DNA of 64,000 nt, from positions 64,230 through 128,229 of the forward strand of contig CAYPFP010000003.1 of assembly GCA_964409935.1 (NCBI GenBank). Direction: 5' to 3'. A model generated the notes under the pieces. That model was not told where the DNA came from, did no database searches, and saw nothing but the letters and a program-made list of their open reading frames with translations. Shown here in pieces: positions 433 to 30,518 of the stretch. This DNA is from an uncultured Planctomycetota bacterium. Its GTDB lineage: Bacteria; Planctomycetota; Brocadiia; JAADGH01; CAYPFP01. The number at the start of each line of letters is the position of its first letter. The stretch's first letter is position 1. A program made the translations under genes and the position numbers.

Positions 433-3153
433 TCACTGAGCAAGCAGTTCCACGCTGTCCACCCCGAACCACGGCCTGGCCCCGACGTGCCCTTCCTTGA
501 GCATGTTTTCGATGGTCAGCCGGTTCGTCCCCGTCTTGAGCGCGCCGGCCGGGATGTCGTACTCTTGCCGGCTGAGCTTTCCCTCCGGGAACGGCCCCTC
601 CCCCTCGAATACCGCCCGCCCGTTCAGCGATATCCGGATCGGCACCTGCGTCCCGCGCTCCACCGGGCACGACATCCCCACCACCGCCAGTCGCGCCTTC
701 GCGGGCACAACCCCCACGCGGAAGTAAGTCGTCATCATATGGTACGGATTTTCCCGCTGCGCGTAAATGTAGTTCCCCTTCGCGGACAAAGTTCGTCCTC
801 CGATCTTGATCCCCGCGTGATAGAGCACTTGTCCGCCGCCTGCGAACTCCGTTCCGAAGATGGTGAGGCTCTTGCCCGGTTCAAGCGTCCGGACCTTCGC
901 CGGGTCTTCCGCCTCAAGCTCCTGTTTCAGCCGCCGGTACGATCCGACGACCATGCTCGCGGCCAGCGCATTTCGGGCGCCGGCGTGCGACGACGCGTAC
1001 GACGCCGACTCCGTGTCCGCCTCCAGGACCTTCGCCAGCGCAGAGGCGTCTCGGTACGCCTCCCCCGCCTCGGCGAACTTTCCTTCCCGCTTTAACGTGA
1101 CCGTCCGGATGAGGCGGTCGTAGAAGTGGATGGTGTTCCACGCATACATCAATCCCTGCCGGTCCTCTTCCACGCGCGCCGCCTGGTCCGGTGTCAAGGC
1201 CTGCTTCGCGGCCTCCTCGATCAGGCCGCGCGCCCGGTCAACGTGCCGCACCATCTCGACGAAATCCGGCCCGTCGTCGGTTTCGGGATGAAACTCTTCG
1301 TAGCGCATGTGCTTGAACGGAAACAGCTTTGGCGCGTCTCGCTCCAACCCCTTCGCCAGCGAGCCTCGCATCAGGCGGCAGTTGGCCAGCGCCCGCTCCA
1401 ACCGCAGGTAACATTCCCGCATGGTCTCCTTCGCCGCTCCGTACCTGCCGGCCAGGTAGTCTGCGAAGAGCGCCTCCGCATCCAGTCCGGGCTTCCACAG
1501 CATCTTCGCCATCTGGTAGTTCGTCAGCGCGCGCGTTCCCCAGTTACGGGTGGTGCAGTGCATGTAGTGCATGTGCCGCGCGCCGGTCCGGTGGTAATGC
1601 GGGATGTCCGAGGACATGGTATGGCGGAACACGATCGGCAGGCACTTGAAGACGGAGACGTTGTAGTACTCGCCGATGAAGATCTGCCCCTGGTAATGCC
1701 GTTGAGGATCGGCGGCCCATCCGACGTACTGCTTGACATACCGCTGGTTGATTTCCGTGCACGTCGGATCGTCGAAGGTGTGAACGTAGCATCGCCCGAT
1801 GGGGAAGAACGTCGCGGTGCAGTTCTCGTAATCAAAATCCGCCGGCAGCGCGCGGGTCGGGGGCTCGATCACGTCGGCGTAGGCGAGGAAGGCGATCTGC
1901 ACGTTCCGGTGGAGCCGCTGCTCCTTCATGGCCTTCTTGATCTCGGCCCGCAGCCGGTGCACCAGCAGCAAGTTCCGGTCCGTCGGGGTTCCCAGCGCCT
2001 TGCAGTCTTCGCACTCGCACCACTTCCCGCCGTCGAGCGTCCAGAAATTGATGCTGTCGGCGTCCTGCCATTTGCCGTCAATCAGGCACTGCACGACGTT
2101 CTTCATCAACTCGCTGCACGCGTGGGGGTTCGACGTGCAGAAGTTGTCGCCGCCGTCGCCGTGGATGTTGAAGCTGCGCTTTCCGAGCCGCAGGCCGTAC
2201 CACTCCGGGTGCGCCTCGGAGTACTGGAGCTTTCCATCGCCGTTTGTGTCGCCGCGAAAATCGGCCGATATCGGATAGGGATCGTCCGGTCTGGCGGAAT
2301 CTCGCGGAAACTTCGGGTGCTTGTACGGGTATTCCGCACGGGGACTGAGAAACTCGTGCTGATGCAGATGCCCCCCGCACGTCAGCAACAGCCCCCGCTT
2401 CTTCAGGGCGGGGTGGTTCGACTGCGCGTCCGTCCAGAGGTTCATCTTGTTGCGGGCCATCCAGTCGAAGAAGTCCTCGTTGCCCCGATCCTCCCACGCC
2501 CAGAACCCGCGCGTGGAGAAGGCGGGCTGTTCCCGGACATTCATGTCCGGGATTTCCTCCAGCGCCCGCCGGGGCACATGCTCATTTGTCTTTCCAGGCC
2601 CGAACCAGCGCACCCCCAGCCGCTCCAGAAAATCGTACACGCCATACAACGTGCCGACGCGTTCTTCGCCGCCGATGAAGATCACGCGCCGCCCGGCGGC
2701 CGTTGCGCTCCTGATCACGAACCCCTCCCGCCCCAGGCCCTCGACTCCCGGCGCCCCGCCCCACAACCGTTCCGCCGTGCGGTTGGATTTTGGACTGCCG
2801 ATGACGATTCGGACGGCCTCCCCCGGCGGCCCCGCTGCCGGGTCGTCGTCCGGCGTCGGCTCGTCGTCGGCGATCCGGATCTCCGCCCCCGTCATTCTGC
2901 TCAGGTACTCGCGCAGTTCCGTCGCCGCGAAGCACTCCGTGCACACCGTGTCGTCTCTGGTGTCCGCGTCGCTGGTACGACGCGCCGCGTCGCTGGTACG
3001 ACGCGCCGCGTCGCGCCAGTTGACGTTCGCCTCGTCCTGCGCCGCCGCCTCCGCCGAGGCATGCTTCCCCAAGTTCACCACAATCGTCGCGCCGCCCTCC
3101 GCCGTCGCGCAGAAAGCGGCAGCCAGAACGAGCGCGGCCCCGAATACCTTCAT
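433..3153 (-). CDS. secreted DUF4838-like putative glycoside hydrolase (GH20b-like N-domain + TIM-barrel-like core); carries in-frame REP-A tandem repeat (ARRTSDAARRTSDA)
   Basis: 906-aa ORF with signal peptide MKVFGAALVLAAAFCATAEG; GVYDFLERLGVRWF-type motif region; 10-nt gap to upstream gene; family assignment from memory of motifs only. Confidence 0.55.
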   Translation of the reverse strand: MKVFGAALVLAAAFCATAEGGATIVVNLGKHASAEAAAQDEANVNWRDAARRTSDAARRTSDADTRDDTVCTECFAATELREYLSRMTGAEIRIADDEPTPDDDPAAGPPGEAVRIVIGSPKSNRTAERLWGGAPGVEGLGREGFVIRSATAAGRRVIFIGGEERVGTLYGVYDFLERLGVRWFGPGKTNEHVPRRALEEIPDMNVREQPAFSTRGFWAWEDRGNEDFFDWMARNKMNLWTDAQSNHPALKKRGLLLTCGGHLHQHEFLSPRAEYPYKHPKFPRDSARPDDPYPISADFRGDTNGDGKLQYSEAHPEWYGLRLGKRSFNIHGDGGDNFCTSNPHACSELMKNVVQCLIDGKWQDADSINFWTLDGGKWCECEDCKALGTPTDRNLLLVHRLRAEIKKAMKEQRLHRNVQIAFLAYADVIEPPTRALPADFDYENCTATFFPIGRCYVHTFDDPTCTEINQRYVKQYVGWAADPQRHYQGQIFIGEYYNVSVFKCLPIVFRHTMSSDIPHYHRTGARHMHYMHCTTRNWGTRALTNYQMAKMLWKPGLDAEALFADYLAGRYGAAKETMRECYLRLERALANCRLMRGSLAKGLERDAPKLFPFKHMRYEEFHPETDDGPDFVEMVRHVDRARGLIEEAAKQALTPDQAARVEEDRQGLMYAWNTIHFYDRLIRTVTLKREGKFAEAGEAYRDASALAKVLEADTESASYASSHAGARNALAASMVVGSYRRLKQELEAEDPAKVRTLEPGKSLTIFGTEFAGGGQVLYHAGIKIGGRTLSAKGNYIYAQRENPYHMMTTYFRVGVVPAKARLAVVGMSCPVERGTQVPIRISLNGRAVFEGEGPFPEGKLSRQEYDIPAGALKTGTNRLTIENMLKEGHVGARPWFGVDSVELLAQ
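2966..3017. repeat. REP-A hairpin repeat GCGTCGCTGGTACGACGCGCC, 2 tandem copies + partial, in-frame in CDS
   Basis: Stem GCGTCG/CGACGC with loop CTGGTA; 21-nt unit = 7 codons (ARRTSDA). Confidence 0.85.
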
Positions 3154-3163
3154 CCCTTATCCC

Positions 3164-4861
3164 TCATTGCGCCTTCAGGTAGACGACTCCCGGCTTGATA
3201 AGCTCCGCCAGCGTCAACCCGCAGAAACCCGTCGCCGCCATGGAGAACTCGCCCCAGGGCAGGTCCGGCTCCACCATGACCCCGATGCGCCTGGCGAATT
3301 CGGGACGGCACAGGAACGCCTTGCATCGTTTCACCCCCTCGCGCACCTCGGCAGCTTCTGCCATGCTACGGTGATATTCGATGAGGACCAGCGGCATGGC
3401 CGCGGCCTTCGAGTTCGTCCACGGATGGGTCGGCGGCCACCACACGCCGTTCTCCCGCGCCTGCAAAAGCCCTTGCGAACCGAAAAGGTGCCGCTCGTAC
3501 ACGCGTCGCTGGTACGACGCGCCGCGCCGCGTCTTTCCCTTGAGCGCCTTGTCCTTCGACCAATGCCACGTCCACAGGATGGCTTCGTGGTAGTAGTAGA
3601 TGTCGCCGAAGTGTGTGACCTTCAGCGCGCGCGCTTCTTTCTTCTGGTGATGGTGATGGATGGGGCGGCCGTCCTCCTCCCAGTTGTCCAGCAGGAAGTT
3701 CGCCGCACGCTCTGCGACCCGCAGGTATCGTTCGTCCCCCGTGATGGCGTACAGGGCGCAAAAGCTCATGCCCTGCGTGCCTGTCGCCACGCTGTACGGC
3801 ACGGTCATGTCCTCGCCCTTCCAACGCCCGTTCGTGAATCCGCCCGACGGCAGTTGCCACCTTGACGCGTACTCGTTGGAGAACCGCCGAAGGGCGTCGC
3901 GATATCTCTTCTTGCGTTCTTCGTCCACGTACGGATGCGCAACGGCCAGACAGGTCGAGATCGAGCCGACATCCGCGCAGTTTGTCGTGCCGCTCATGGC
4001 CCGCTGGAGTTCCACGCCGCTTCGTTCCGAAACGGGCTTGTTGCGGAACGCGCTTTCCCACGCCCCGTTGGGAAGCTGTTCGCCGACGAGTTTGTCCAGG
4101 ACCGCCGTCACGGCCTCCAGGTATCGCTTGTCGCCGAAGATGTCGTAGCCCGCCAGCAGGGTCCGAATCGGATAGCTGCACCGGTACCACTCGCTGGAGT
4201 TGGCTTCGAAGAACCCCTGCCCGGTTTGGTGCGCGAGCAACCAGTCGCAGTACGCCTTTAACGTCCCTTTCGCGTCGGGTGCGGGACCGGCCTCCAGTTC
4301 CGCAACCGCCGGAACTGTGTTCGGCGGTGCGACTTCGGAGTACACGCTATGTTCTTTCTGTTGCTTCTGCCCGCGGACGACCATTGCCGTCACTGTGAAG
4401 TTCGGCGCGCCTTCCACCGGCGTGATCTCGATGCACAGTCTTTCGTCGGTCACTCGGGCCGTAAACGTCTTCGTGACGAACTCGCCCTTCCTCGTGATCA
4501 GCCTCTCGACGACGAGCCGTCCCTGCGCGTAGACATTGAAGGGGCCGTGTGGAAAATCCTTGTCGCCGAACGTGACCCCGATCTCGTACTCCCCGTTATC
4601 AAGCCCGGCGATGAATTCTCCGCGGTCCCCGTGCACCAGATCGCGATTGAGCATGTCCTTGCCGCCCCGGTCGCGATTCCCGAGGTTGATGCCCTTCCAC
4701 CGGAACCGGGGGTCGTGGCTTCTGGCCTCCACGGCAACGTATCCTTTGGCGCAGGTCTCCCTGGGGCCGAAATCTATCCTGAATACATCGGTCTGCATTT
4801 GCCCAAGTACGCTCCCACAAAACCAGCACGCAAGAAGAAACGCGAATTGTCTCATGTACAT
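3164..4861 (-). CDS. secreted protein with N-terminal beta-sandwich and (alpha/alpha)6-toroid domain (polysaccharide lyase/hydrolase-like, family unresolved)
   Basis: 565-aa ORF, signal peptide MRQFAFLLACWFCGSVLG; toroid-type repeats (GAWE, SGGFTNGRW, QGMSFCALYAITGDERYL); contains single REP-A copy in-frame (GASYQRRV). Confidence 0.5.
   Translation of the reverse strand: MYMRQFAFLLACWFCGSVLGQMQTDVFRIDFGPRETCAKGYVAVEARSHDPRFRWKGINLGNRDRGGKDMLNRDLVHGDRGEFIAGLDNGEYEIGVTFGDKDFPHGPFNVYAQGRLVVERLITRKGEFVTKTFTARVTDERLCIEITPVEGAPNFTVTAMVVRGQKQQKEHSVYSEVAPPNTVPAVAELEAGPAPDAKGTLKAYCDWLLAHQTGQGFFEANSSEWYRCSYPIRTLLAGYDIFGDKRYLEAVTAVLDKLVGEQLPNGAWESAFRNKPVSERSGVELQRAMSGTTNCADVGSISTCLAVAHPYVDEERKKRYRDALRRFSNEYASRWQLPSGGFTNGRWKGEDMTVPYSVATGTQGMSFCALYAITGDERYLRVAERAANFLLDNWEEDGRPIHHHHQKKEARALKVTHFGDIYYYHEAILWTWHWSKDKALKGKTRRGASYQRRVYERHLFGSQGLLQARENGVWWPPTHPWTNSKAAAMPLVLIEYHRSMAEAAEVREGVKRCKAFLCRPEFARRIGVMVEPDLPWGEFSMAATGFCGLTLAELIKPGVVYLKAQ
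3503..3523. repeat. REP-A, single copy, in-frame in CDS
   Basis: Exact 21-mer. Confidence 0.85.
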
Positions 4862-4862
4862 T

Positions 4863-5885
4863 TCACAGGACTTCCTTCAGCCATTTCATGGCCGGTTCTT
4901 GGGGAAGGTAGTGGCCGCCTTCGTGTTCGAAGAGCTGCAAGTATCGCTCGGCGCTGAAAGCGGCGTACGCCTGCCGTATGCCCGCCCCCATGCGCGCGCG
5001 ATCTTCCTCGAACAGCAGCGGGTCTTTTTTTCCCGACATAATCATCAGCGGCTTGGGCGCGATCAACGTAAAAACCTCGCCCACGTCGCCGTGCCGCAGC
5101 AGGCCGGGCAGGAACTGCAGGCCGCACGAGGTCAGCTTGAGCGACCGCTCGCGGAAACAGTTGAGGCATCCCGAACACACTGCCGCCCTCACGCGGCTGT
5201 CGAACACCGACAGCCACATGGACATCCGCCCGCCGGTGGAATTTCCCATTACCGCGATTCGTTTCGGGTCCACGTCTTCGCGCAAGGCGATGACGTCCAC
5301 CCCCGCCTCGCCGTCCGAGATCATCAGCGAGAGCAGCGGTATCCCGTACATCTGCCCTGCCACGAACTTCGAGTTGCACATGTCGTCGTTGAACCGGAAT
5401 CCTGCCTCTACCCGTTCGCCCCATCCCCACCAGTCGGGGCAGAGGGTCACGAAGCCGGCGCGCACGGCGCCCAGCCCGTAATCATCCGGCGGGTCGTCTC
5501 CCTTGGCGGACGGCACAATCCCCGCCACGGCGTCCTTGCCGCCGTGATGGTGTCCGTGGAGGGCGAGCACGCCGGGTCGTCTTTCGCCGCGTTTGAGGCC
5601 CTTGGGCTTTAGCACGTACGCGGTCACCGTCGCTCCGGGCACGGAGTCGTACGCGATGTGCTCGCGCACGTGATCTTCCACCTCTACGCAGTCCAGCACT
5701 CGGATGTTCAGCGGCGGCCTCGGAAGGGGTTGCCCGCGCAGTTCGAGCATCTTTTCGCGGAAGCTCTGTTGCCAGGCTCTCACGCTCTCCCGCGAACCGT
5801 CGCCGGCGTAGGTCATGTCCGGTTTGCGCAGGTCGCCGTACACCCGCAGGAATTCCCTGAATGACACTCGTTTGGGGTCTATCAT
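4863..5885 (-). CDS. alpha/beta hydrolase (acetyl-xylan esterase / dienelactone hydrolase-like)
   Basis: ORF 4863..6119 trimmed to ATG at 5883-5885 (MIDPKRVSFREFL); earlier part of ORF is low-complexity; GNSTGG nucleophile-elbow (GxSxG) and HGHHHGGKD region. Confidence 0.55.
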   Translation of the reverse strand: MIDPKRVSFREFLRVYGDLRKPDMTYAGDGSRESVRAWQQSFREKMLELRGQPLPRPPLNIRVLDCVEVEDHVREHIAYDSVPGATVTAYVLKPKGLKRGERRPGVLALHGHHHGGKDAVAGIVPSAKGDDPPDDYGLGAVRAGFVTLCPDWWGWGERVEAGFRFNDDMCNSKFVAGQMYGIPLLSLMISDGEAGVDVIALREDVDPKRIAVMGNSTGGRMSMWLSVFDSRVRAAVCSGCLNCFRERSLKLTSCGLQFLPGLLRHGDVGEVFTLIAPKPLMIMSGKKDPLLFEEDRARMGAGIRQAYAAFSAERYLQLFEHEGGHYLPQEPAMKWLKEVL

Positions 5886-5949
5886 TTCCCTCGTCCTCGC
5901 CCCGTCCCTGGCGCCGCCAGGAACGGGGCACGCCATTGTTCCAATCTGT

Positions 5950-8636
5950 TCACTGATGCAGCCGCTGCATCGAGCCGTCGCGGTGCTCCACCTCAACAAG
6001 CGTCGCGCCGTCCTTGATCGGCGGTTCGGCGCGGAGCGCGCCGACCGTCCGCCCGTCATCCGGGAAACGCAGCAGCCCGTAGAAGTCATGCCTGACGAGC
6101 TTCGTATACTCGTTCTCAACGCCCAGCTTGATCAGCGGGCTGTCCGGCCTGAGCCGGTAGTCTTCGCGATCAGGGTCAGAAAATCCCGGCGGCTGGTCGA
6201 GAGGCGTCGCGCCCTTGCCCTTGTCCGTGTAATTGCCCTCCACAAGGTCCTCGGCTCTTGCCCTCACGGCGGAACGGCAGCCCACCACAATGTTGTTGAG
6301 GTACGCCTGCCGGCGGTCCTTCAACGGGCACCAGCGGGTGCCGCGATTTGCCCGGCCCTCGCCCAGGTACAGGCCGTCGGCCCCCACGAGCTTCTGCCAG
6401 GCGGGCAGGGGATTCCAGCGTCCGTCAATAGTGTTGTTGACGGCCCAGTTGCGGGCGGAACTCCACGAGAGGATGGCCTCGCGGAACCACACAGGCCCGG
6501 GCCTCAGGTTAACGGATAGGTTGTTGGCGATCAGGTTAGGACCCGGCGACGCCTCGATGCCGACGCACAAGGCCCACGCGTTGCGGAAGAAGTTGCCCTC
6601 GATCCGGTTGGCGTAGTGCGACCAGTCGAGCCAGATGCCCGGCCCGCTCCCGCCGATGACGGTGTTGTAGCGGATGACGCAGCCCGTGAGGTGGAACAGT
6701 TTCATCCCTCCCGACTCCCAGAACGACGGATGGCCGGCCCAGTTGTTGTTGACCATCGTGTTGTGCTCGATGAAGACGCGGCTGCGTCCGGGTGCGGGGC
6801 CGTCCTGGTTTTCCGCCGTAAGTTTGTCCGAAGTCCCCGATCCGCTGATCCCCACATTGCCGGGGTTTACGATCCAGTTGTTGCGAATGATGATGGGCGC
6901 CGCCGTCTGGTCTTTGTGGCACCTGAACGAGATGCCGCCGACCTCGCTGTCGCGGACCAGGCAGCCCTCCAGCACTAGTCCCTCCCCGTTGAGCAACACC
7001 AGGGCGCGTTGCTGGAACTGCGCCCCGTGCCGAAGCTCGAAACCCATGACCTCGACGAAGTCGCCCTTGACGAGCACGATCTCGTTGCTCCGCGCCGAGA
7101 GGTCAAGCGGGTGGTCGTTCGGGTCGGCGTTGCCCGGCAGGCGGACGTACACGCCCAAGTCCTTCTCCGCCGGAAACGGCCCCAGCACGAGGTATTCCGA
7201 CACGTGAGGCTGCGGCCCCGCTGTCGTGGGCTTGGCGCGGTCGGGCGGCTCGCCCGCCGACGCGACCACGCCCTCCACGCCTTTCGGCACGCCGAACTTG
7301 AAACGCACTTTGTCCGGGCGTGTCGTTGTGTCGAACTCAAAGACGAGATGGTTCCAGCCTTCGCGCAGGGTGAAGTTGTCCCACGAGTCGGCGAAACCGT
7401 AGTTGCGGTACGGGTGCGGCAGGTCCAGTTGGAAGTCCCGTTCGGTGGAGTAGATGACCGACGGCAGTCGCGTGCCGTTGACCCACACGCGGTACTTGTT
7501 GACCTGCGCGTTCAGGCCCGCCCCGCACATCCGAGCGGCCCGGAATTCGCCGCCGACCAGCAGGCGCCCCGTGATCGGTTCTGGGAAGTCCGGGTGCCAT
7601 TCGATGTCTTTCTTCTTTTTCGGCTCGACCCAGACGTGCGTCGAGGTCCGGAAGACGGCGTTGGCGGACTCCGGACCATAAGCCGCGCCGAGGTCAAGGA
7701 AACCTTCGGCGTCGGCGCGCAGCAGACGCCACGTCTTGCCGAACTGCGTCTCGCCTTCCCGCGGCTTGGCCGCCCCGTCGAGCCGCAGATTGAGGAACTC
7801 GCGGGAGGCCCGGTTCAGGCAGTACTCGCCTTCCTTCAACTCCGAAGGCAGGCTGCGCTCGATGAGCGTGCGCCCGCCGACCGACATCGTCCCCAGGAGC
7901 TTTGTGAACAGATCCGCCCGGTACACGCCCGGCAGTCCCTCAACCGGCTTCCACGCGCCGGGGGGGAAGGTGTCGTTGCCGGTGATGGCGGGCATGGCGC
8001 CGTCCGCGCCTCGCACGCCCTCCAGTCGGATAGGTCTCGCCGCCGCGCCGCTCTTTTCGATCTTCACGGCCTCGCGGTAGACGCCGGCATGAACATGGAT
8101 GATGCTCCCCGCTTCGGCCCGGCTGATGGCCGCGCTGATCGTCTTCAACGGGGCGTCAGGCGTTCCGGGACCGCCGTCGTCGGCACGCGGATGTCCATTA
8201 TTGACGATGAGGGTTGGGTTGGGCGACAGATCGATGGGGGCAGGCCCGGTTGGCGGCGGCGGTTCGGGGCCGGATGGGCCCGCCGTCCGGATGTACCAGT
8301 TCCGGACTTCAGCGGCGGGCTTGCCGAAGATTGTGCGGCTGATCTCATCCGCCGTCTTGCCTTCTGTCTCGCCGTCGAGTCCGCGAATGCGATTCAGAGG
8401 GTAGTTGATGACCCACCAGCCGGGACGGCTGCAGGTCAATTTTTTCCCGTCGTACCTGACCTCCACCTCGGTTTCACCCAGAAGCAGGCGCTGTCCGCCT
8501 GATGTGATGACGGCGGGCGCCAGCGGCGGCATATCGGGGATGTTCCGTCCGGGCGGCGGCAGGGGCGCGGCCTTTTCCTGCCCTTCCGCGCTGAACATGG
8601 CCGCTAAAACAAGAAACGCTGCCAGTCTTTTCATCG
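5950..8636 (-). CDS. secreted right-handed parallel beta-helix repeat protein (pectate-lyase-like fold)
   Basis: ORF trimmed to signal-peptide start MKRLAAFLVLAAMFSAEG; repeated NN-rich beta-helix turns (IRNNWIVNPGNVGISGSG, HNTMVNNNWAG, IRYNTVIGGSGPG); overlaps upstream gene stop by 6 nt. Confidence 0.6.
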
Positions 8637-11306
8637 GCGCGCCTTGCCTTTCTGCGCCACCGTCAGCGTTCCGCCGCATCGGAGCAGAAGCGGGCTGGGG
8701 AACTTCAGCGTGTCGGCCTCCATCGAAAAGCGAACGGCTTCCCCGTTCGCCCGGACCGCTGCCCTTGCGCCCGGTTTCAAAGCCCCAAGCCGCAGCGTCG
8801 AGACCGCAAGAACCCCGTGAAGGACCGTAATCTCGACGCTGCCCCCTTTCTGTCTCAGTGTGCCCCAGCCGGTCCCCGTGGACCAGAAACAGCGGAAGTC
8901 ATCGCCTGCGATCCGTGGCGCGATGGTCAGCGCCTTGCGCGCGCCGTGATAGACGAAGCCCGACAGGGCCGGCAGCGCCGTCCAGCTTGCCATGGCCCTG
9001 GCGTAGTGGTGGCCGCATTCGGCCTCGTCCCACGGGCTGCGGCGCTCGCCGTCGTACCGCGCTCGGATCGCCGCAATCACCTCCAGCCCCTGCTCGATCA
9101 GCCCCTCATAGATCATGTGTACCGCCGCCTGGTACTCGAAGCCCGTCATCACCTCCGAGAAGTACGGAAACGGGACCTCCGGACGATTCCCTTTCGGCCA
9201 AGTGCAGATGAGCAGCGCCGACTCGTCGTTGAGGGCGTATGTGCGCATCGTGTTCCAATGGTCGTACATCCCCCGCTTGAAGTTGTGCTTGAAGAGCGAC
9301 TCCAGCGCCTTGCGCACCTTGTTTCGGTTCAGAACGTAGCCCAGTCCGAGCGCATGCGCCATGTACTGCCCCAGCAACTGGTCCACGAGACACCCGTTGC
9401 CGACCTGGAACTCGGGCCGGCCCGGATCGCCCGTTCCCATCCCGACCGTCAGCCCCGCGAGCGGTTTCTCGCCCGGCGGCAGTCCCTGTATCTTCTGGAT
9501 GTAGTACTCGCCGTTCCAGAGGTTCGCGTCAATCCAGCGGCTTCCCTTCTCGAAGAGGCCGCGACAGCGTTGCGCAAAGGCGGCTTCGCCCATTGCCTTC
9601 GCCATCTCCTCCATCGCTCGCAGCGCGCCGAGGTACATGGCGCCCATCATGGGGTTAGGCCCGAAGAACTCCACGTCGTAGGTGTTGTGTTGGCAGCCTT
9701 CCATCACGCCGTCCTGGTCGGCGTCCCACGAGCCGGCCAGCCACGCGAACTCCATCGTCTTGCGGGCCTTGGGCCACAGGACGCGCAAAAATTCGTCTTC
9801 GCCGGAAAGCTGCCATTCCCGGTACAGGCGCATGATCGTGCCCATCTGTCCGTCGGCGGCCGCCATGTTGGACGGCGGCGCCTCCCGCAGCGGCAGGCGC
9901 GTTCGGAAGCTCATGAGTCCGTCCTCGCGCGTGCTCGGACCGAACTCGACGCATCGCATCGCCCGCGCCAGCGTCGGGAACAGAAAGCCCGAGGCGTGTT
10001 CGTAGTTCCACACGTGCGTGCACGATCCGTAACAGCACCCGGTCTTGTCGTGGCAGCCTTCGAAGCCGTAGAAGTTGCCGTCGGCGGTGCGGAAACATGT
10101 TTGCGAACGCAGGGTGGACAGATTGTTGAGCGCGGCCTCTTTCACCGCTTGCGGCAGGCTGCTTTCGCAGAACGCCCGGGCGAACTTGAGCGTCTCGGCT
10201 TCCAGGTCCGCAAGCTGCGCGCCGACCTCGCGCGCCGCGGCCCAGGCGTCTCCGAATCTCGTCGCGTAATGATTGCCGACGCGTCCGGCGTTCTCCTTGT
10301 TTCCGGTGTCCCAGCCGCACACCTGGGCGGTGCGGTTCGGGAAGTGCCAGCTCAGCAGGAACGTTATGGTTTTCTCGCTGCGCGGCGGGATCGTGCACGC
10401 CGCCGCCAGCGAGGCGTGTTGCGAGGTCTTGTCGTCCGCCGCTGGAGGGCCGGGATCACTGAGCTTTCCGTCCGCCGAAAAATCGTCCCAGAACGCGAGG
10501 ATGTCGTTGTTCCATCTCTTCCGCGCCCATCGCGCGCGGAAGCTGACGGTGTCGTGAGTCGTCGCGATGGCTAGCGTCCCGTACTGCGGCGAGTCCGGCG
10601 CGACAAAATCCGATCTCAAGAGCATCCCCCGGAGGCCCTTCGCTTGGACGAACTCATTGCGGTTGCCCTGCGCCGCGCCGTCCTTGCCGTCGAAACCGAT
10701 GAAGTTCTCCAGGCTCCCGCACACCGAGGCCCTCAGCGGGCGGCTGGTCCGGTTCTTCAGCACATAGCGCAGCACGGCAACCGGCAGGCCGGAGCGCTCG
10801 GCATCGTGCGGGATGAGCGGGTTCCACGCCCCCAGTCGCACGGAGACGGGCACGTCCGGATCCGAAAGCTCGACCTGCGCCAGCGGGTACGCCGCGTGGA
10901 AAACACACTCGCGGAATCGCGGCAGACCGGCGTCCGGCCCTGCTCCGGTACTGCCGTCATACGGCGGTGTCAGGACGCCTTCGAGCACGCGCGTCACCGG
11001 CGGCTTTGCGCCGTCGCGCACCCACAAAGCGAAGAACGAATGGGCCGGTTTGTATCCCTTCGAGGCGCGGTTGACGATCTCCCAATCAATCAACTGTCCT
11101 CGTCCGCCCAGCGAGACCGTGCCGGTCCCGATCCCGCCCAGCGGAAACGCTATCCTTTGAAGCTTTCGCTCGCGATAGGTTGTCAGGATGGGCCATCGCG
11201 GACGCGGCGCGTCGTACCAGCGACGCGGCGCATCGTACCAGCGACGCGAGGCCTGCGTTGCGCGCGCTGCGCGGCCTTTCCTGCTCGATCTGCGACTGCC
11301 GGTCAT
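8631..11306 (-). CDS. GH116-family glycoside hydrolase (glucosylceramidase/beta-glucosidase-like); N-terminus carries tandem REP-A (RRWYDAPRRWYDAP)
   Basis: ORF trimmed to ATG 11304-11306 preceded by GGAGGAG SD; N-domain motif RIAFPLGGIGTGTVSLGGRGQLIDWEIVN typical of GH116; 891 aa. Confidence 0.6.
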   Translation of the reverse strand: MTGSRRSSRKGRAARATQASRRWYDAPRRWYDAPRPRWPILTTYRERKLQRIAFPLGGIGTGTVSLGGRGQLIDWEIVNRASKGYKPAHSFFALWVRDGAKPPVTRVLEGVLTPPYDGSTGAGPDAGLPRFRECVFHAAYPLAQVELSDPDVPVSVRLGAWNPLIPHDAERSGLPVAVLRYVLKNRTSRPLRASVCGSLENFIGFDGKDGAAQGNRNEFVQAKGLRGMLLRSDFVAPDSPQYGTLAIATTHDTVSFRARWARKRWNNDILAFWDDFSADGKLSDPGPPAADDKTSQHASLAAACTIPPRSEKTITFLLSWHFPNRTAQVCGWDTGNKENAGRVGNHYATRFGDAWAAAREVGAQLADLEAETLKFARAFCESSLPQAVKEAALNNLSTLRSQTCFRTADGNFYGFEGCHDKTGCCYGSCTHVWNYEHASGFLFPTLARAMRCVEFGPSTREDGLMSFRTRLPLREAPPSNMAAADGQMGTIMRLYREWQLSGEDEFLRVLWPKARKTMEFAWLAGSWDADQDGVMEGCQHNTYDVEFFGPNPMMGAMYLGALRAMEEMAKAMGEAAFAQRCRGLFEKGSRWIDANLWNGEYYIQKIQGLPPGEKPLAGLTVGMGTGDPGRPEFQVGNGCLVDQLLGQYMAHALGLGYVLNRNKVRKALESLFKHNFKRGMYDHWNTMRTYALNDESALLICTWPKGNRPEVPFPYFSEVMTGFEYQAAVHMIYEGLIEQGLEVIAAIRARYDGERRSPWDEAECGHHYARAMASWTALPALSGFVYHGARKALTIAPRIAGDDFRCFWSTGTGWGTLRQKGGSVEITVLHGVLAVSTLRLGALKPGARAAVRANGEAVRFSMEADTLKFPSPLLLRCGGTLTVAQKGKARR
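11206..11247. repeat. REP-A (reverse orientation), 2 tandem copies (second with 1 mismatch), in-frame in GH116 gene
   Basis: GGCGCGTCGTACCAGCGACGC x2, encodes RRWYDAPRRWYDAP. Confidence 0.85.
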
Positions 11307-11326
11307 CGTTCGTCTCCTCCGTCCGA

Positions 11327-13094: not shown

Positions 13095-14165
13095 ATGAGA
13101 AAGACCGGTGACGTGATCATCCTGAGAAAACCGAAGCGCCAGCTTGCGTTTGTGGGCGCGGCGCGTCGTTCCAGCGACGCGGCGAGGCGCACAGGCGGCG
13201 AGATTCTCGTCGTCTTCCGCGAAGGCGCGGGCCACGTGGACCCCGAAGGCCGAATCCTCCTCATGCGGTCCGACGACGACGGGCGCTCCTGGTCTGGACC
13301 GCACGTCGTGGCCGACACCGACCTGGACGACCGCGACCCTTCCATCAAGGCCCTGCCCGACGGGCGTGTAGTCGTGAATTATTTTAGTTCGAAGTGTACT
13401 GCGCCCTGGGACGAGGAACACATCCGGCGCTGGATCGGGCCGGAGGGTTACGAGTTGGGCAAGCGGAACTGGTCAGCCGAGGTGGCACGCATCGGGCTGC
13501 GCTTCTCGCAGGACGGCGGACAAACGTGGGGCGATGAGGTCCGCATCGAGCGAAAGGGCGTTGCCGTCTCGGCCTCCGTGTGCGCGCTGCGCGACGGCAG
13601 TCTTCTGCTTCCGATCTATGGCCGCTTGAACACCCCAAACTACGCCGCCTATCTCATGCGTTCCACCGACGGCGGGAAGTCCTGGGGCGAACTCGAACTC
13701 ATCGCGTCGGATCCTGCCGGCGCCATGCCTTTCTCCGAACCCACCCTGCTGGCGTTGCCCGACGGCCGCCTGATCTGCCAACTGCGCACCACGGGCGCCA
13801 AGACAGACGCCGGCGCCATCTGGCAGACCGAGTCCTCCGACGGCGGCCGCTCGTGGACGCCGCCGCGCAAGCTGCCCCTTTGGGGATACCGCCAGAGTCT
13901 CGCCCTGCTCTCGAATGGGGATGTGCTCTCGGTGTACGGCTATCGCCGGTATCCGATGGGGGTGCGCGGCGCGGTCAGCCGCGACGGGGGCCGCTCGTGG
14001 GATCCGGCCGCCGAGTTGCCGATCCGTTGGGACGGCCTGCATCACGACCTGGGTTATCCGGCAGCCGTGCCCCTGGAAGACGGCCGCGCCTTTGTCGCCT
14101 ACTACATCAACACGACCGGAGACCCTTTCTCCTACATCTGCGGCAGTTGGTTGGCGCCCTCCTGA
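13095..14165 (+). CDS. BNR/Asp-box repeat (sialidase-like, GH33-like) protein, no signal peptide; contains variant REP-A copy
   Basis: ATG 13095 preceded by AGGAG SD (7-nt spacer); five S-x-D-G-G-x-(T/S)-W boxes (SDDDGRSW, SQDGGQTW, STDGGKSW, SSDGGRSW, SRDGGRSW). Confidence 0.65.
   Translation: MRKTGDVIILRKPKRQLAFVGAARRSSDAARRTGGEILVVFREGAGHVDPEGRILLMRSDDDGRSWSGPHVVADTDLDDRDPSIKALPDGRVVVNYFSSKCTAPWDEEHIRRWIGPEGYELGKRNWSAEVARIGLRFSQDGGQTWGDEVRIERKGVAVSASVCALRDGSLLLPIYGRLNTPNYAAYLMRSTDGGKSWGELELIASDPAGAMPFSEPTLLALPDGRLICQLRTTGAKTDAGAIWQTESSDGGRSWTPPRKLPLWGYRQSLALLSNGDVLSVYGYRRYPMGVRGAVSRDGGRSWDPAAELPIRWDGLHHDLGYPAAVPLEDGRAFVAYYINTTGDPFSYICGSWLAPS
13159..13179. repeat. REP-A variant (GTTCC for GTACC), in-frame in BNR gene
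   Basis: 20/21 match. Confidence 0.7.
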
Positions 14166-14186
14166 GCGCGCGGCCGACGCGGCAGA

Positions 14187-18103: not shown

Positions 18104-18137
18104 AGATGTAGTTTACCCAGGAGGGAGGCTGGACGCC

Positions 18138-19444: not shown

Positions 19445-19457
19445 AACGGAGGAACGG

Positions 19458-20648: not shown

Positions 20649-20660
20649 CAAACGCATATG

Positions 20661-20694
20661 GGGCGCGTCGGAGACGCGCCCCTTTTGTCGCGCA
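20661..20694 (+). terminator. intrinsic terminator GGGGCGCGTC-ggag-ACGCGCCCC-TTTT after flavodiiron gene
   Basis: Perfect 9-10 bp GC stem, 4-nt loop, T-tract; 13 nt after stop. Confidence 0.6.
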
Positions 20695-20736
20695 TATTAT
20701 GGAGTGGTTAAGTCTATATTATTTGGAGGACGAGGC

Positions 20737-22029: not shown

Positions 22030-22042
22030 CAGGAAACAAGAA

Positions 22043-22085
22043 GGGGACGCATCTCTCCCCGGAACAGGGAGTTGCGTCCCCTTTT
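22043..22085. terminator. bidirectional intrinsic terminator between convergent hcp and FGE-like genes
   Basis: GGGGACGC-atCTCCCcggaacaGGGAGtt-GCGTCCCC followed by TTTT on plus strand and T-rich run on minus strand. Confidence 0.55.
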
Positions 22086-22121
22086 GCCTTCGACGGCCCA
22101 GGCGGCAACGGCCACCAGCCG

Positions 22122-23821: not shown

Positions 23822-23843
23822 ACACGCGCCTTCCGAGCCTCGC

Positions 23844-24638: not shown

Positions 24639-24710
24639 CTGTGCCGCTCCTCGGCCCGTTTCTCGGGGCCGATCGCTTGTTCATGCCGCGCCCCGCCGGG
24701 GGCGCCGTCC

Positions 24711-25631: not shown

Positions 25632-25667
25632 GATCGTGCTTCCTCCAGACCATCAACATTCGGCGCG

Positions 25668-28600: not shown

Positions 28601-29018
28601 ACGGCTTGATGTCCCGATGCACGATCCTCTTCTCGTGCGCGAAGGCCAGCGCCAGCGCTATGTCGCGCACGATCCGCGTGGCCTCCGTCAACGGCATTCG
28701 TCCGCGCTTCTCCAGCGCTTCGGCCAGCGACGCACCCTCCACGAGCTGCATCTCGACGAAGGCGATCCCCTGATCTTCTCCGGCCCGGTAGACGGTGACG
28801 ATATTGGGGTGATCCAGTTGGGCGGCGTTCTGCGCCTCCCGCAGGAACCGCTCGGAGAACGTCGGGTGCAGTTCGACCAGTTGTTCGGGCAGCACCTTGA
28901 CGGCCACGGCCCGCTTCAAACGGACATTCATGGCCCGGTACACGACGCCCATCGCGCCCCGCCCCAGCAATGCTTCGATGAAACAGTCGCCTAGCTGTTT
29001 GCCGACCAGATCGCCCAC
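25668..29018 (-). CDS. Ser/Thr protein kinase with J-domain-like module, TM helix, TPR-like region and two C-terminal DUF1080/LamG-like domains
   Basis: GTG start with GAGAGGG SD; kinase motifs GRGAMGVVY, HRDIKPSNVLL, DFGLSK, GTPLYMSPEQ; TM IMPIAVAAVVVVAALAAAAFFVA; repeated C-terminal jellyroll ending ...VDAVAVYS / ...DDVAVYS. Confidence 0.8.
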   Translation of the reverse strand: MGDLVGKQLGDCFIEALLGRGAMGVVYRAMNVRLKRAVAVKVLPEQLVELHPTFSERFLREAQNAAQLDHPNIVTVYRAGEDQGIAFVEMQLVEGASLAEALEKRGRMPLTEATRIVRDIALALAFAHEKRIVHRDIKPSNVLLAKDGTVKVADFGLSKNLSDFPEGRKVTMTGEPLGTPLYMSPEQCEGRVVTPSSDIYALGVMYYEMLAGRLPVTGRNALEIMRAHVEKHPMPIRNFAPSTPDDVVEILERMLHKSPERRFSSARDVAARLQVVLDRLQGKPAQRAASPAVERPLLRDVYRDWIGVVSADRPPNFYQLLNLPEFSASSEQVRSAAQAQLVRLQRFTDSPEHGPIAAQLVAEVRRAQSQLSDRQERAYYDRRLREIKADLVRKMGEAILAAGRPSEARIADWRIQARSTGLADEAVGQIIADVLQKRYPRKVEKPAARIMPIAVAAVVVVAALAAAAFFVARGHGKPKTGTEGAAPAPADLVAEVKKLATQGRLQEAVAMAALARSDAKQAETADQWVAKISQYEKLTRNRILDAGRMVAHAQFAEARNLYNLAAQVAPEFGENDLVHLAREGAASLSETAYSHFLSTGDEYRKEAQFDKAAAAYTEALSWTSGEDDVRKAQTMVALARGEATQKAPPSPKAPPPRAAARPDRERAESKPSQSKQPPLIECMSGESRAVIGEALLDETFDSGKTEWPLQDTEEMKAMIQEGEYHILQRMPGYCGLAQKEFDDFVMLARVRCVSDMKAAYFGLLLRGDAEGEGYRFLIATEGEDVAGTYAVIKAFGGETKVLAETTKSAAVKTGPDVYNVLEARCQGDRLRLYVNGVFIKEISDASSDSGNIGFWAFKLPLEIAVDAVAVYSLKPPAAKQPPPEAEKPEPKKAETPPAPAPPAPATPAPEKTTKAATTTPAAPEKQPSKKMSVPRPRTLALREDFSGRAAGWTQRNDDLLRVEVRSGKYIVEVVRGQDWAFYPDKTFKDFAFRADAQQTSGSSAGYYGLCFRATRQTLSAYYFLISSAGACKIFGTKGGVVFELVKETATKHLRRGLRQENTLEVVCYGPAMKFMINNYEVATLTDKSFSEGAVGFFVCDAPIQVAFDDVAVYSSD

Positions 29019-29156
29019 CGTCGCGCCCTCTCAGACACTCCGCGCCTCTACGCCCGATTCGTCCGCCGGTCCGACCGCCTGATCCGGATGCGCCGCCGAG
29101 TCTTGCCCCTCGTTCCGGCTCGTATCGTAACAGGACCATGGGGCGTTCTCAAGCCT

Positions 29157-30518
29157 CTACGGCTTCACCGAATACACCACAAAATCGTCGAATGCCGCCT
29201 TCGTGCCCTTGCCTTGGACCAGCGTCCCCACACGCCCCTTCAGGAAGTTGGCGTCGGTTACGGTCGCGGCATGGATGAAAGTCCCATCTATGAAAAACCG
29301 AAGCGAGTCGCCTTTGCACAGGGCCTCAAGAACGTATTCCTTGCCCCGTGCACTGGCTTTTCCCGCCTTTGGGGCCTCGGCAAGCGTGGCTGTCGGCCCT
29401 TCCTTGCCCCAAAGTCGCACCTGCCCGCCCTTCTCGGTAATCACCAGTTGGTAGCCCCTCCACTCATAGCCTTTCACTCCGGAAGGCACCCTCAGCAACA
29501 TCCCGCATGACCGGGGCTTGCCGTCCGGATGCTCCAAACACGTCGTTCTGACCGAAACGACAAAGTCCTCGAAATTTCCCCAGGCGTCCCCAGGGAATCC
29601 CCCGATACACTCCACTATAAACCGTCCGCCCGCGATGGATCGTATGCCATGGTGTGTCCGGCGAATCTCTCCGTCGGCCATATGATTCCACCGCTCGACG
29701 TGCAAGGGAACACCCATCGCCTCCCGCAACTCCCGCGCCACAGGCTGGGGCAACGTGGATTTGTATGGCGGCAGGGCGTCCTTCTTCACGGAGAACACGA
29801 TCAAGTCGTCAAAGCGCGCCGTGAAGCTTTCCTTTCCAGCCGCCACACACGCAAATCGCCCCCGCACTGGTAGATCGGTCTGCACTTCCGCCGTTGCCGC
29901 GTCGCTGGTACGACGCGCCGCGTCGCTGGTACGACGCGCCGCGCCGTTGAGCCACCCCTTGACCCGGTCCCCCACGCATCTCCCTTCGACGATGTTCCTC
30001 TCCTCCATCCCGAATTTCATCAGGGCCGGCGAAAGCCTCTCATACACTCGATGCAGTCGCCGGTCCCCTCCGTGCAATTCCACCATCCTCCCAAAGCGAA
30101 GCGCCAGTTCAAGAGCGGCGTTTCCGTCCTCCCGGAACTTGACGGCGGCGGTCGCCGTGGGGTCCCCGGCGCCCGAAACGGCGACCTGGAAGATGAAGTC
30201 GTCGAACCACCGTTCGAGACGAGCCAGGGTGTAGGACCTCTCCCTCTCGTCCACCAGGAAATACGCGCCGTCCCGGATGAGGCAAGACGCAGGCCCCGTG
30301 GGAATGATGGGCCAGCCGTGCACGCCCCCCGGGGGGGCGTTATCATCGAATGGTTCGTACAGCAGCAGCTTGTCCGCCAGCTTCTGGTTTTCCGGCTGGA
30401 GACGCCGTCGCAGTTCCTCAACCTTCGGTCCGACCGCCGCCTGCGGCAACTCTCTCTCCTGCGCGACCGCCGGTCCGACCGCCGGTCCCTGCCCCCCCCG
30501 CAAGGCCAAGCCTCTCAT
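29157..30518 (-). CDS. protein with two DUF1080/LamG-like domains; start uncertain, probably C-terminal part of a frameshifted larger gene; carries tandem REP-A (ARRTSDAARRTSDA)
   Basis: Tool ORF 29157..30674 has junk N-terminus overlapping upstream ORF; first plausible ATG M53; domains end AFDDFVVYSVKP like kinase C-terminus; C8 homopolymer in overlap. Confidence 0.45.
   Translation of the reverse strand: MRGLALRGGQGPAVGPAVAQERELPQAAVGPKVEELRRRLQPENQKLADKLLLYEPFDDNAPPGGVHGWPIIPTGPASCLIRDGAYFLVDERERSYTLARLERWFDDFIFQVAVSGAGDPTATAAVKFREDGNAALELALRFGRMVELHGGDRRLHRVYERLSPALMKFGMEERNIVEGRCVGDRVKGWLNGAARRTSDAARRTSDAATAEVQTDLPVRGRFACVAAGKESFTARFDDLIVFSVKKDALPPYKSTLPQPVARELREAMGVPLHVERWNHMADGEIRRTHHGIRSIAGGRFIVECIGGFPGDAWGNFEDFVVSVRTTCLEHPDGKPRSCGMLLRVPSGVKGYEWRGYQLVITEKGGQVRLWGKEGPTATLAEAPKAGKASARGKEYVLEALCKGDSLRFFIDGTFIHAATVTDANFLKGRVGTLVQGKGTKAAFDDFVVYSVKP
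29889..29930. repeat. REP-A, 2 exact tandem copies, in-frame in DUF1080 gene
   Basis: Encodes ARRTSDAARRTSDA, same peptide as at 2966. Confidence 0.85.

Follow-up and report, generated by a model that had tools for sequence, protein, structure and literature searches.

A 21-nt hairpin repeat carried in frame by five unrelated genes of a Planctomycetota bacterium: a probable DNA-level insertion element

We found that a 21-nt hairpin sequence, GCGTCGCTGGTACGACGCGCC (hereafter REP-A), lies in frame within five unrelated genes of a 64-kb window, i.e. the whole stretch of Planctomycetota DNA that was analysed. The reading that we consider most probable, with a probability of about 0.6, is that REP-A is a lineage-private hairpin repeat acting at the DNA level, a selfish or neutral ‘coding REP’ that colonizes coding sequence. 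Its best analogue is the Rickettsia palindromic element (RPE), of which it would be a miniature counterpart: on this reading, REP-A resembles the selfish ‘coding palindromes’ of Rickettsia on a much smaller scale, with five unrelated enzyme genes hit in frame.

With 0–1 mismatch allowed, the 21-mer has eight matches in the window, at five loci. The chance expectation is 0, as no match was seen in 100 dinucleotide-preserving shuffles; the 21-nt stem-loop at five loci reported in a first-pass annotation of this DNA was thus borne out, with eight units. Six of the eight copies are identical and each of the two variant units has a single-base difference. The fold consists of a GC-rich stem, (C)GCGTCG/CGACGC(G), with a 6-nt loop, CTGGTA, and a 1–3-nt spacer; in its context the unit reads GCC-GCGTCG...CGACGC-GCC. 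As ssDNA the hairpin has a predicted energy of −7.2 kcal/mol (z = −2.3), and a 6-bp stem such as this is present in only 1.4% of the window's 21-mers. That REP-A is free of stop codons in all six frames is unremarkable, since the same holds for 49% of the 21-mers in the window. TRF detected 21-nt periods (2.3–2.4 copies) at all three dimer loci, and the three dimers are all head-to-tail with 3-nt spacing. The three tandem dimers had been described as perfect; two are, while the third, in the GH116 gene, contains one mismatch.

Host A (433..3153, minus strand; 906 aa) has DUF4838 and GH67N-like domains, according to Pfam and orthologues, and a signal peptide. It carries a perfect head-to-tail dimer of 2 × 21 nt at 2966..3007 (plus strand), read on the minus strand as ARRTSDA-ARRTSDA (residues 50–63). 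Host B (3164..4861, minus strand; 565 aa), which has a signal peptide, combines a beta-sandwich with an alpha/alpha-toroid and gives weak Pec_lyase/GH127-like matches, carries a single perfect unit at 3503..3523 (plus strand), read on the minus strand as GASYQRR (residues 447–453). Host C (8631..11306, minus strand) is GH116 beta-glucosidase-like by Pfam; its dimer at 11206..11247 (minus strand), one unit of which has a C→T change in the 3′ stem arm, encodes RRWYDAP-RRWYDAP (residues 21–34). The start codon of host C is the ATG at 11306, which follows GGAGGAG, and there is no in-frame ATG, GTG or TTG from the repeat to the conserved WPIL motif. Host D (13095..14165, plus strand; 356 aa), which is BNR/sialidase-like (BNR_2), carries a single unit, the loop of which has a T→A change, at 13160..13180 (minus strand), read on the plus strand as ARRSSDA (residues 23–29). 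Host E (29157..30674, minus strand) is a DUF1080 protein (3-keto-disaccharide hydrolase-like; 430 aa in its database version); its perfect dimer at 29899..29940 (plus strand) is read on the minus strand as ARRTSDA-ARRTSDA and, in the first DUF1080-like half, comes immediately after the WLNG strand.

Every one of the five loci is intragenic and in frame, and the identities of the ORFs concerned are supported by Pfam. The hosts named in the first-pass annotation (DUF4838-like, toroid, GH116, BNR and DUF1080 proteins) agree with Pfam, the match of the toroid protein being Pec_lyase-like. The hosts had also been taken to be secreted throughout; obvious signal peptides were seen only in hosts A and B.

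The dimer loci 2964–3013 and 29897–29946 are identical at 49 of 50 positions, and these 47–49-nt identical dimers are separated by 27 kb. The two had been singled out as identical before, and the near-identity stands, with the second dimer at 29899–29940 and not at 29889–29930. Four loci form local pairs: 2966/3503, 537 bp apart, and 11206/13160, 1.9 kb apart. REP-A spans 3–30 kb of the window and a second repeat family, REP-B, 40.7–63.6 kb; the positions of the repeats confirm the earlier remark that the two families occupy separate halves. This local clustering and segregation hint at local templated spread.

The single 21-mer is read in three frames, as ARRTSDA at three loci (including ARRSSDA in host D), as GASYQRR in host B and as RRWYDAP in host C. 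Two of these frames, ARRTSDA and RRWYDAP, had been recognized earlier and both are present; the third, GASYQRR, had been missed, as had the ARRSSDA form in host D. There is no synonymous variation among the copies, which are nucleotide-identical apart from the two single-base variants, and the ARRTSDA frame carries CGT-CGT, CGT being a rare codon (9% of Arg codons). The inserts are defined by DNA, not by protein. By Kyte-Doolittle sum, each frame in use is more hydrophilic than any of the three unused ones; the corresponding probability, (1/2)^5 = 0.03, comes from a test chosen post hoc.

Exactly 14 aa are missing at the insert in 19/19 orthologues of host A, and exactly 7 aa in 27/27 orthologues of host B, with conserved flanks in both cases; for host D an exact 7-aa gap, again with conserved flanks, was observed in a BNR paralogue located in the window. 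Alignment with insert-free relatives had been proposed as a check, and its outcome was an exact gap of 14 residues for host A and of 7 residues each for hosts B and D. For host C, the repeat motif was found in 0 of 18 GH116 relatives. One of these, L006, is syntenic (order Pec_lyase→GH116) and 77% identical at the aa level; the repeat is absent there and the N-terminus is short. Homologues of host E were sought and none were found; its own C-terminal DUF1080 domain is ∼12–13 residues shorter at the insert point, which is a weak comparison. With no orthologues, host E provides weak evidence; in host C the N-terminus varies among homologues. Judging by these alignments, the REP-A inserts are derived insertions. 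The opposite observation, a heptapeptide conserved in distant homologues, was made in 0/19 sequences for host A, 0/27 for host B and 0/18 for GH116, and the host D paralogue is also without it. The exact gaps, the three frames and the rare CGT codons support the earlier proposal of spread at the DNA level rather than ancestry or a peptide motif.

In the AF2 model of host B (mean pLDDT 93) the insert coincides with an internal stretch with pLDDT <50 (residues 443–445), and forms a low-pLDDT loop between helices 438–441 and 450–460. In the model of host A (mean pLDDT 88) the insert coincides with residues 48–62, also with pLDDT <50; this protein has one further internal stretch of that kind, residues 101–103. 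The low pLDDT at the inserts is partly due to the alignment gaps there. As modelled, the inserts sit in tolerated loop positions. The first-pass annotation had placed them near N-termini or in interdomain linkers; the linker assignment did not hold for hosts B and E, where the inserts are in intradomain loops.

Searches in 596 Gb of genomes, JGI metagenomes and IMG/VR gave only single chance matches to the REP-A family, all of them within unrelated conserved genes. REP-A-like repeats were absent from the relatives L006 and L007, and no Rfam family matched. These results suggest that REP-A is private to one Planctomycetota lineage. An independent Logan assembly (contig L005) bears the host B insert, so the sequence is real; the contig terminates within the host A unit, as expected of a multi-copy repeat.

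The junctions bear on how REP-A could have spread. At the five loci, junction homology on the left and right sides is (2,7), (1,3), (1,5), (4,3) and (3,3) nt, with totals of 4–9 nt and just 1–4 nt on the 5′ side. A total of ≥4 nt has a probability of 0.048 at a random window site and, for five loci together, of 2.7e-7. A common target motif with CGCG-type flanks had been suggested, and a common junction, C^GCG(Y)C, is indeed present at 5/5 sites; among oriented CGCG sites, 23% are CGCGYC. The insertion phase is consistent as well: the allowed start offset is −1..+3 at 5/5 loci and only whole units were inserted. A permuted hairpin, GTA-CGACGC-GCC-GCGTCG, was ruled out as the insertion phase, as start offsets are only −1..+3.

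On the preferred reading, REP-A would have been copied into at least five unlinked chromosomal sites, each within a protein-coding gene. Since the insert lengths are multiples of 21 nt, translation stays in frame, and a surface loop or an N-terminal segment of the host protein would be lengthened by 7 or 14 hydrophilic residues. Selection would keep only those copies whose frame gives a hydrophilic, loop-compatible peptide. We tentatively suggest that REP-A moves as an ssDNA hairpin by means of a trans-acting hairpin-specific enzyme, possibly an HUH/Y1 transposase of the RAYT or IS200/IS605 type, which would insert it at CGCG without a variable target duplication. Head-to-tail dimers could be due to replication slippage, or to the element's 3′ end supplying a new CGCG target. 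IS200/IS605-type ssDNA substrates have subterminal hairpins and insert 3′ of a fixed tetra- or pentanucleotide, with a strand bias, no target duplication and a TnpA. In REP-A, the hairpin and the fixed CGCG junction are present, and there is no TnpA gene in the window. Other points speak against the enzyme: no transposase, RAYT, Y1_Tnp or integrase domain was found in the about 45 ORFs of the window; lagging-strand targeting by IS200/IS605 predicts an orientation bias, while we observed three units in plus and two in minus orientation, i.e. no strand bias (n = 5); and the variable 4–9-nt junction homology suits microhomology copying equally well as a fixed enzymatic target.

Such copying is the main rival: enzyme-free template switching onto an existing REP-A through CG-rich microhomology (CGCG/GCGTCG) and then back, with dimers produced by slippage. 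The variable junction homology, the local pairs, the spatial segregation of the two families and the lack of a transposase in 64 kb all fit this explanation, and CGTC-type REPs of other bacteria are also without an associated transposase (PMC3733652). Still, it leaves identical 47–49-nt dimers lying 27 kb apart to be accounted for, the 5′-side homology is small, and two imprecise switches would not ensure whole units in one phase at 5/5 loci. We regard template switching as doubtful, and favour, by inference, a trans-acting hairpin/ssDNA enzyme that targets CGCG.

We give little credence to a larger cut-and-paste transposon having left REP-A behind as an excision footprint or a minimal remnant (two TIRs and a target duplication). 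Two TIR ends could underlie the inverted-repeat layout, and a duplication of 4 bp, CGCG, formally fits every junction; with identical junctions, a duplication and a fixed target are indistinguishable. Independent excisions are, however, usually heterogeneous, while 6/8 REP-A units are identical; the 3-nt tail is constant and not site-specific, head-to-tail dimers occur at three loci, and no parent element was found in the window or in public collections. MITEs have TIRs and a site-specific TSD; the stem arms could likewise be taken as such TIRs, and the size of REP-A is below the MITE range (about 50–500 bp).

It is also very improbable that the hairpin is a selected DNA or RNA signal, such as a nucleoid, gyrase or uptake-protein site or a translation-modulating mRNA structure. 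The hairpin is stable, and classical REPs bind gyrase or IHF and stabilize mRNA (PMC3733652); the host genes and the intragenic positions are unrelated, though, the element is absent from relatives with the same genes, and there is no match in Rfam. Four of the five loci share one orientation relative to transcription, which is not significant (p about 0.4).

Finally, a functional protein module (linker, sorting signal, or protease or modification site) under amino-acid selection is largely refuted: the ARRTSDA frame at 3/5 loci, the hydrophilic, Arg-rich peptides and, in host D, the ARRT that follows the insert and echoes the motif in different codons could be cited for it, but a single DNA sequence yields three different peptides, the models show the inserts as disordered loops, none of the orthologues or paralogues examined has the motif at the amino-acid level, and the copies are nucleotide-identical with rare CGT codons and no synonymous variation.

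Intragenic REPs and RPEs have been documented mostly in Opitutus terrae (PVC superphylum) and R. conorii (PMC3733652; PMC10969869). RPEs are about 100–150 bp long with one conserved peptide per family, according to the summary of Ogata et al. 2000 in PMC10969869. They resemble REP-A in being palindromic selfish DNA, in frame in unrelated housekeeping or enzyme genes and absent from orthologues, with the peptide added at tolerated structural positions and several families per genome. REP-A shares the in-frame insertion absent from orthologues and departs from the RPE in length and in the single peptide: it has a 21-nt unit (inserts of 21 or 42 nt), three frames and head-to-tail tandem dimers, is found in one Planctomycetota genome, not in Alphaproteobacteria, and has no sequence similarity to RPEs.

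Intragenic REPs of the GTAG and CGTC superfamilies occur notably in Opitutus terrae, and in R. conorii as RPE-4/RPE-6 (Di Nocera et al. 2013, PMC3733652). Like REP-A, they are 20–40-nt stem-loops with 6–9-bp stems and several coexisting families, with singles or dimers wholly within ORFs encoding extra amino acids, which gives a precedent in the PVC superphylum. Unlike REP-A, classical REPs are mostly extragenic (REP-A is intragenic at 5/5 loci, with no RAYT in the window) and head-to-tail dimers are rare to absent among them. In size and shape REP-A agrees with the GTAG superfamily (20–40-bp dispersed stem-loops; here 21 nt, a 6–7-bp stem and five loci); we rejected membership, as neither strand has an unpaired GTAG (GYAG/GTRG/GTGG) tag and there is only GTA in the loop. 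CGTC-superfamily REPs have an unpaired terminal CGTC, an 8–9-bp stem that starts with A/T pairs, a 4–5-nt loop and a CCA-like tail (PMC3733652); in REP-A the CGTC (nt 2–5) is paired in a 6–7-bp all-GC stem, the loop has 6 nt and the tail is GCC, so this class was rejected too.

The REPIN-type layout of extragenic, inverted (HH/TT) dimers was rejected for intragenic loci with head-to-tail dimers. REPIN/RAYT and IS200/IS605 systems are similar to REP-A in being hairpin-defined, with a short fixed junction and no variable TSD, and a REP-A dimer, with two hairpins on one strand, recalls the pair of left-end and right-end hairpins to which a TnpA dimer binds (PMC3116915; PMC6006769). REPINs differ in being inverted pairs, intergenic and located beside a RAYT gene; the window is without an HUH gene, and REP-A has no orientation bias.

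PARCELs are, like REP-A, tandem coding repeats with DNA dyad symmetry, dispersed among unrelated ORFs. PARCEL domains, however, are amphipathic and 25 residues long, show conservation at the protein level, are detected by HMM and spread horizontally, while REP-A adds 7 residues, is defined by DNA and appears private to one lineage. The SDRs of the cyanobacterium Nostoc described by Elhai et al. in 2008, a study cited in PMC3116915 and PMC5861425, are reportedly about 21–27 nt long, dispersed and apparently mobile; a secondary structure is predicted for them and no transposase is obvious. They are also said to be richer in AT and to lie mostly between genes or inside other repeats. REP-A resembles them in tiny size, dispersal and structure, although systematic in-frame insertion into coding sequence is not described for SDRs.

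REP-A, a 21-nt hairpin unit, is a real repeat, private to its lineage, that colonises coding sequence in frame. We searched the window with GCGTCGCTGGTACGACGCGCC, allowing up to three mismatches, and observed eight units at five loci; dinucleotide-preserving shuffles yielded matches in 0 of 100 cases. Both units are perfect in the dimers at 2966-3007 (+) and 29899-29940 (+), as is the single unit at 3503-3523 (+); the dimer at 11206-11247 (-) has C->T in the stem of one unit, and the single unit at 13160-13180 (-) has T->A in the loop. The first-pass annotation had listed the same five loci, with the last dimer placed 10 nt off and three dimers called perfect where two are. TRF detected 21-nt periods at all three dimer loci. 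Relaxing the search to five substitutions added one chance-like match, while the generic pattern GCGTCG-N3-9-CGACGC matched seven of the eight units and nothing else in the window, the eighth being missed because of its stem C->T. As single-stranded DNA the unit adopts a hairpin of 6 bp with a loop of 6 nt (-7.2 kcal/mol), and such a stem is present in just 1.4% of window 21-mers. The dimer forms two hairpins, with energies of -16 and -20 kcal/mol for the two strands. Six of the eight units have the same sequence; between the two perfect dimers, 49 of 50 positions agree.

The window has a GC content of 64-65% and is ~95% coding according to our own gene list; all five loci fall within ORFs with high GC3 and Pfam support. 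Host A (433-3153, -; DUF4838 plus GH67N-like, with signal peptide) carries ARRTSDA twice at residues 50-63; host B (3164-4861, -; beta-sandwich plus alpha/alpha toroid) carries GASYQRR at residues 447-453; host C (8631-11306, -; GH116) has RRWYDAP twice at residues 21-34; host D (13095-14165, +; BNR_2) has ARRSSDA at residues 23-29; and host E (29157-30674, -; DUF1080) again has ARRTSDA twice. A single DNA sequence is translated in three frames across the hosts, one more than had been listed at first. In host C the ATG at 11306 has GGAGGAG just upstream, and from the repeat to the conserved WPIL...IAFPLGGIGTG motif there is no in-frame ATG, GTG or TTG; thus, the repeat is almost certainly translated.

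Comparison with homologues, which the first-pass annotation had proposed as a check, gave exact gaps in three hosts. All 27 orthologues of host B (41-73% identity) read ...ALK-KI-------RRVY... against ...ALKGKTRRGASYQRRVY... in the window, a clean 7-residue gap within a well-conserved block. The 19 orthologues of host A read ...EANVNW--------------RDAD..DD.ICTECFAA..., the window protein having 14 residues more; removal of the 42 nt restores VNWRDAD. For host D, a BLASTP alignment with the window's second BNR gene paired AFVGAARRSSDAARRTGGEILVV with AFPGVAEL-------LDGDLLVV, an exact 7-residue gap to a paralogue. The evidence for host C is weaker because N-termini vary in the GH116 family: the closest representative (77% identity) has an N-terminus starting MAKHNVKPWPVLTTY, and its contig, which is syntenic with this region (Pec_lyase, then GH116), contains no tandem repeat and no REP-A. 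A homologue search for host E found none; its C-terminal DUF1080 domain aligns to its own N-terminal half (E = 2e-4) and is ~12-13 residues shorter at the insert, which may be taken as weak support for insertion. A 19.5-kb contig of a relative at 72% amino acid identity has no comparable repeats. Overall, the analysis shows the inserts to be derived, in frame, defined by their DNA and located in loops.

The heptapeptide motif was absent from all homologues examined; its conservation there is what the first-pass annotation had set against its own reading. Together with the use of three frames, the identity of nucleotides and the rare Arg codon CGT in the ARRTSDA frame (9% of Arg codons), this absence indicates that REP-A is a DNA-level element. 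Of the six possible frames, the hosts use the three that are most hydrophilic, with Kyte-Doolittle sums (our own calculation) of -10 to -15; the other three score +2 to -5. Such frame use suggests survivorship selection, with a post hoc probability of (1/2)^5 = 0.03. The absence of stops in all six frames was rejected as an adaptation, as it is true of 49% of window 21-mers.

AlphaFold2 models of hosts A and B were built on the orthologue alignments and reached mean pLDDT of 88.3 and 93.3, respectively. In host B residues 443-445 are the sole internal stretch with pLDDT <50, and the block 441-450 (mean 57) is a loop that connects helices 438-441 and 450-460. In host A, pLDDT is <50 for residues 48-62, which lie in the coil that follows helix 34-39 and precedes helix 65-88. 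The inserts in both proteins are thus modelled as disordered surface loops, with the caveat that alignment gaps at the insert positions lower pLDDT by themselves.

To define the target, we reconstructed empty sites in unit orientation: GGTGTCC^GCGTCGCGCC, CGTACAC^GCGCCGCGTC, AGGCCTC^GCGTCCGCGA, CCTCGCC^GCGCCCACAA and CGTTGCC^GCGCCGTTGA. Flank homology (left, right), counted against the cyclic unit, was (2,7), (1,3), (1,5), (4,3) and (3,3) in this order; a total of ≥4 has a probability of 0.048 at random window sites, and the five loci together give 2.7e-7. The insertion phases common to all five loci are offsets -1 to +3, which places the boundary within C|G|C|G|T. Two readings fit: either an element that ends in CGCG was inserted 3' of CGCG without duplication, or 4 bp (CGCG) were duplicated. 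The sequence continues with YC at all five sites, CGCGYC making up 23% of oriented CGCG sites (p ~6e-4). The results show a CG-rich junction common to the five sites, in line with the shared CGCG-type motif that had been suggested for checking. An alternative phase, GTA-CGACGC-GCC-GCGTCG-CTG, mimicking a GTAG-type REP, was rejected, since only offsets -1 to +3 are allowed. In host D the ancestral codons directly 3' of the insert (13181-13192; GCG AGG CGC ACA) encode ARRT, the first four residues of the ARRTSDA unit in different codons, which may be a coincidence or target resemblance. The syntenic contig (Logan SRR27730043_151411, 5 kb) has 54% GC versus ~64% in the window, a large difference for relatives that are fairly close; the window may owe its targets for the repeats to its GC-rich, CGCG-rich composition.

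Di Nocera et al. (PMC3733652) distinguish two REP superfamilies by their tags, GTAG and CGTC. REP-A is without the unpaired GTAG tag of the former, and its CGTC, unlike the tag of the latter, is base-paired within the stem. Single and dimeric REPs within genes, adding residues to the protein, are known and are most numerous in R. conorii and in Opitutus terrae, a member of the PVC superphylum; few REP dimers are head-to-tail, and CGTC REPs come without a transposase (PMC3733652). Rickettsia palindromic elements (RPEs) are the classic case of in-frame insertion (PMC10969869), compared with which REP-A is far smaller, uses three frames and forms head-to-tail dimers. REP-A works like an intragenic REP or a mini-RPE, yet it belongs to none of those families. 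An Rfam scan of the window gave no match for REP-A, its sole match being a tRNA: tRNA-Arg (anticodon TCG; 37373-37449, -), which Rfam and ARAGORN both give as the window's only RNA gene. As annotated, ORF 36863-37480 overlaps this tRNA with its 5' end, thus the true start of the ORF probably lies further downstream.

Bacterial genes are normally purged of selfish repeats, with Rickettsia as the textbook exception; here, such repeats reside in frame in a free-living, gene-dense, GC-rich Planctomycetota-like genome, with a unit near the lower size limit of a recognisable element. As its target (C^GCG) and phase are well defined, REP-A is a compact system in which the movement of REP-like hairpins lacking a transposase can be studied; it also shows how enzymes acquire neutral loop insertions of 7 or 14 residues. 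In annotation such repeats could be misread as low-complexity linkers or protein motifs.

With regard to the mode of spread, we tentatively favour, at a probability of about 0.35, mobilisation by a trans-acting enzyme acting on hairpins or ssDNA, of the REP-associated transposase (RAYT) or IS200/IS605 type. Such an enzyme would fit because the element is essentially a hairpin with a fixed short junction and no variable target duplication, and because the two same-strand hairpins of the dimer resemble left and right IS ends. Counting against it, Pfam scans of the ~45 ORFs of the 64-kb window revealed no transposase, orientation is 3:2 with no bias, and the length of junction homology varies. 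The main rival, which we consider rather unlikely, is enzyme-free template switching via CG-rich microhomology; in its favour, REP-A loci occur in local pairs, and REP-A (3-30 kb) is spatially segregated from the second, palindromic family, REP-B (40.7-63.6 kb); that the two occupy separate halves had been noticed at first reading. It is similarly doubtful that at least two ultra-small families (21-nt REP-A, 18-nt REP-B), coding-preferring or coding-exclusive, spread via a CG-rich target and by a route that has nothing to do with RAYTs. The route would be either an unrecognised hairpin-specific enzyme or replication-coupled copying with one arm templating the other; the two families occur in the window at about one per 2-5 kb. 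If true, no smaller autonomous-looking unit of in-frame selfish DNA would be known, and a free-living bacterium would possess a systematic source of new surface loops. As to the dimers, the unit restores CGCG at its 3' end, so that reinsertion would produce exactly the perfect head-to-tail arrangement; they could also have arisen by slippage. Local de novo birth from the flanks was rejected, given the same 21-mer at five unrelated sites, as was a sequencing-adapter or assembly artefact, given in-frame copies, a specific target and agreement of an independent assembly.

The host B insert is present in that assembly as well (Logan, run SRR11582140; 2.9-kb contig SRR11582140_36112), and the same contig ends, at its positions 2922-2942, exactly within the first REP-A unit of host A. 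A contig end inside a repeat is typical for multi-copy repeats; repeats of the REP-A type fragment short-read and de Bruijn-graph assemblies in this way. The MAGs that supply the best homologues carry the annotations Planctomycetes, Planctomycetota or Phycisphaerae, from which the taxonomic assignment is inferred.

The exact 21-mer had two single matches in 596 Gb of species-representative genomes (GTDB) and two in JGI metagenomes, three of the four being in the same conserved Xanthobacteraceae gene (L002, 5207-5227; L003, 44-64; L004, 13088-13108). This gene encodes ...PIYRRRWYDAPLRALL... and happens to encode RRWYDAP by chance. An 18-mer core gave 10 single matches in IMG/VR, all within conserved phage genes. 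As these matches are single and located in unrelated conserved genes, we rejected them as chance; single 21-mer matches in GC-rich genomes are no evidence of a REP-A family. No such family was found elsewhere in the GTDB species genomes, JGI metagenomes and IMG/VR, the source genome not being among them, and by these searches REP-A is private to its lineage.

REP-B is represented by 15 copies of the palindrome core CCCGACGTCGGG (≤1 mismatch) within 40731-63577, at a density of ~one per 1.5 kb, with none in the first 40 kb; examples are at 40731-40769, 42452-42495, 42779-42790, 43546-43591, 44574-44585, 46155-46166, 49722-49733, 54604-54642, 56580-56591, 58590-58601 and 63566-63577. All copies are within ORFs, part of them as 18-nt tandem arrays; the frame encodes PDVG in 10 of 15 and PTSG or RRR in the others. 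At 43546-43591 a variant, CCCAACGTTGGG, adjoins CCCGACGTTGGG/CCCGACGTCGGG, with G->A and C->T on opposite arms. As these paired changes keep the palindrome perfect, they hint that what REP-B conserves may be the hairpin, or arm-to-arm templating.

Other repeats were observed in the window. A CG-rich 15-nt tandem repeat, CTCGCGCCCCGCGCG (58011-58071, 4.1 copies), encodes (RAGRE)n in frame within a 1188-aa HEAT-repeat ORF (56157-59723, -). Three tandem GFO_IDH_MocA oxidoreductase paralogues (families D1-D3) occupy 59650-63666, ~1.3 kb apart and with 67-79% nucleotide identity; a fourth family member, with a TAT signal, is located at 54763-56106. Finally, a 146-nt direct repeat with 93% identity (31401-31546 and 34585-34730) lies at the 5' ends of the neighbouring minus-strand ORFs 30418-31647 and 33206-35032, both of which encode a common N-terminal segment, MLLELSIARTMMLVRA..., followed by Pro/Ala-rich repeats.
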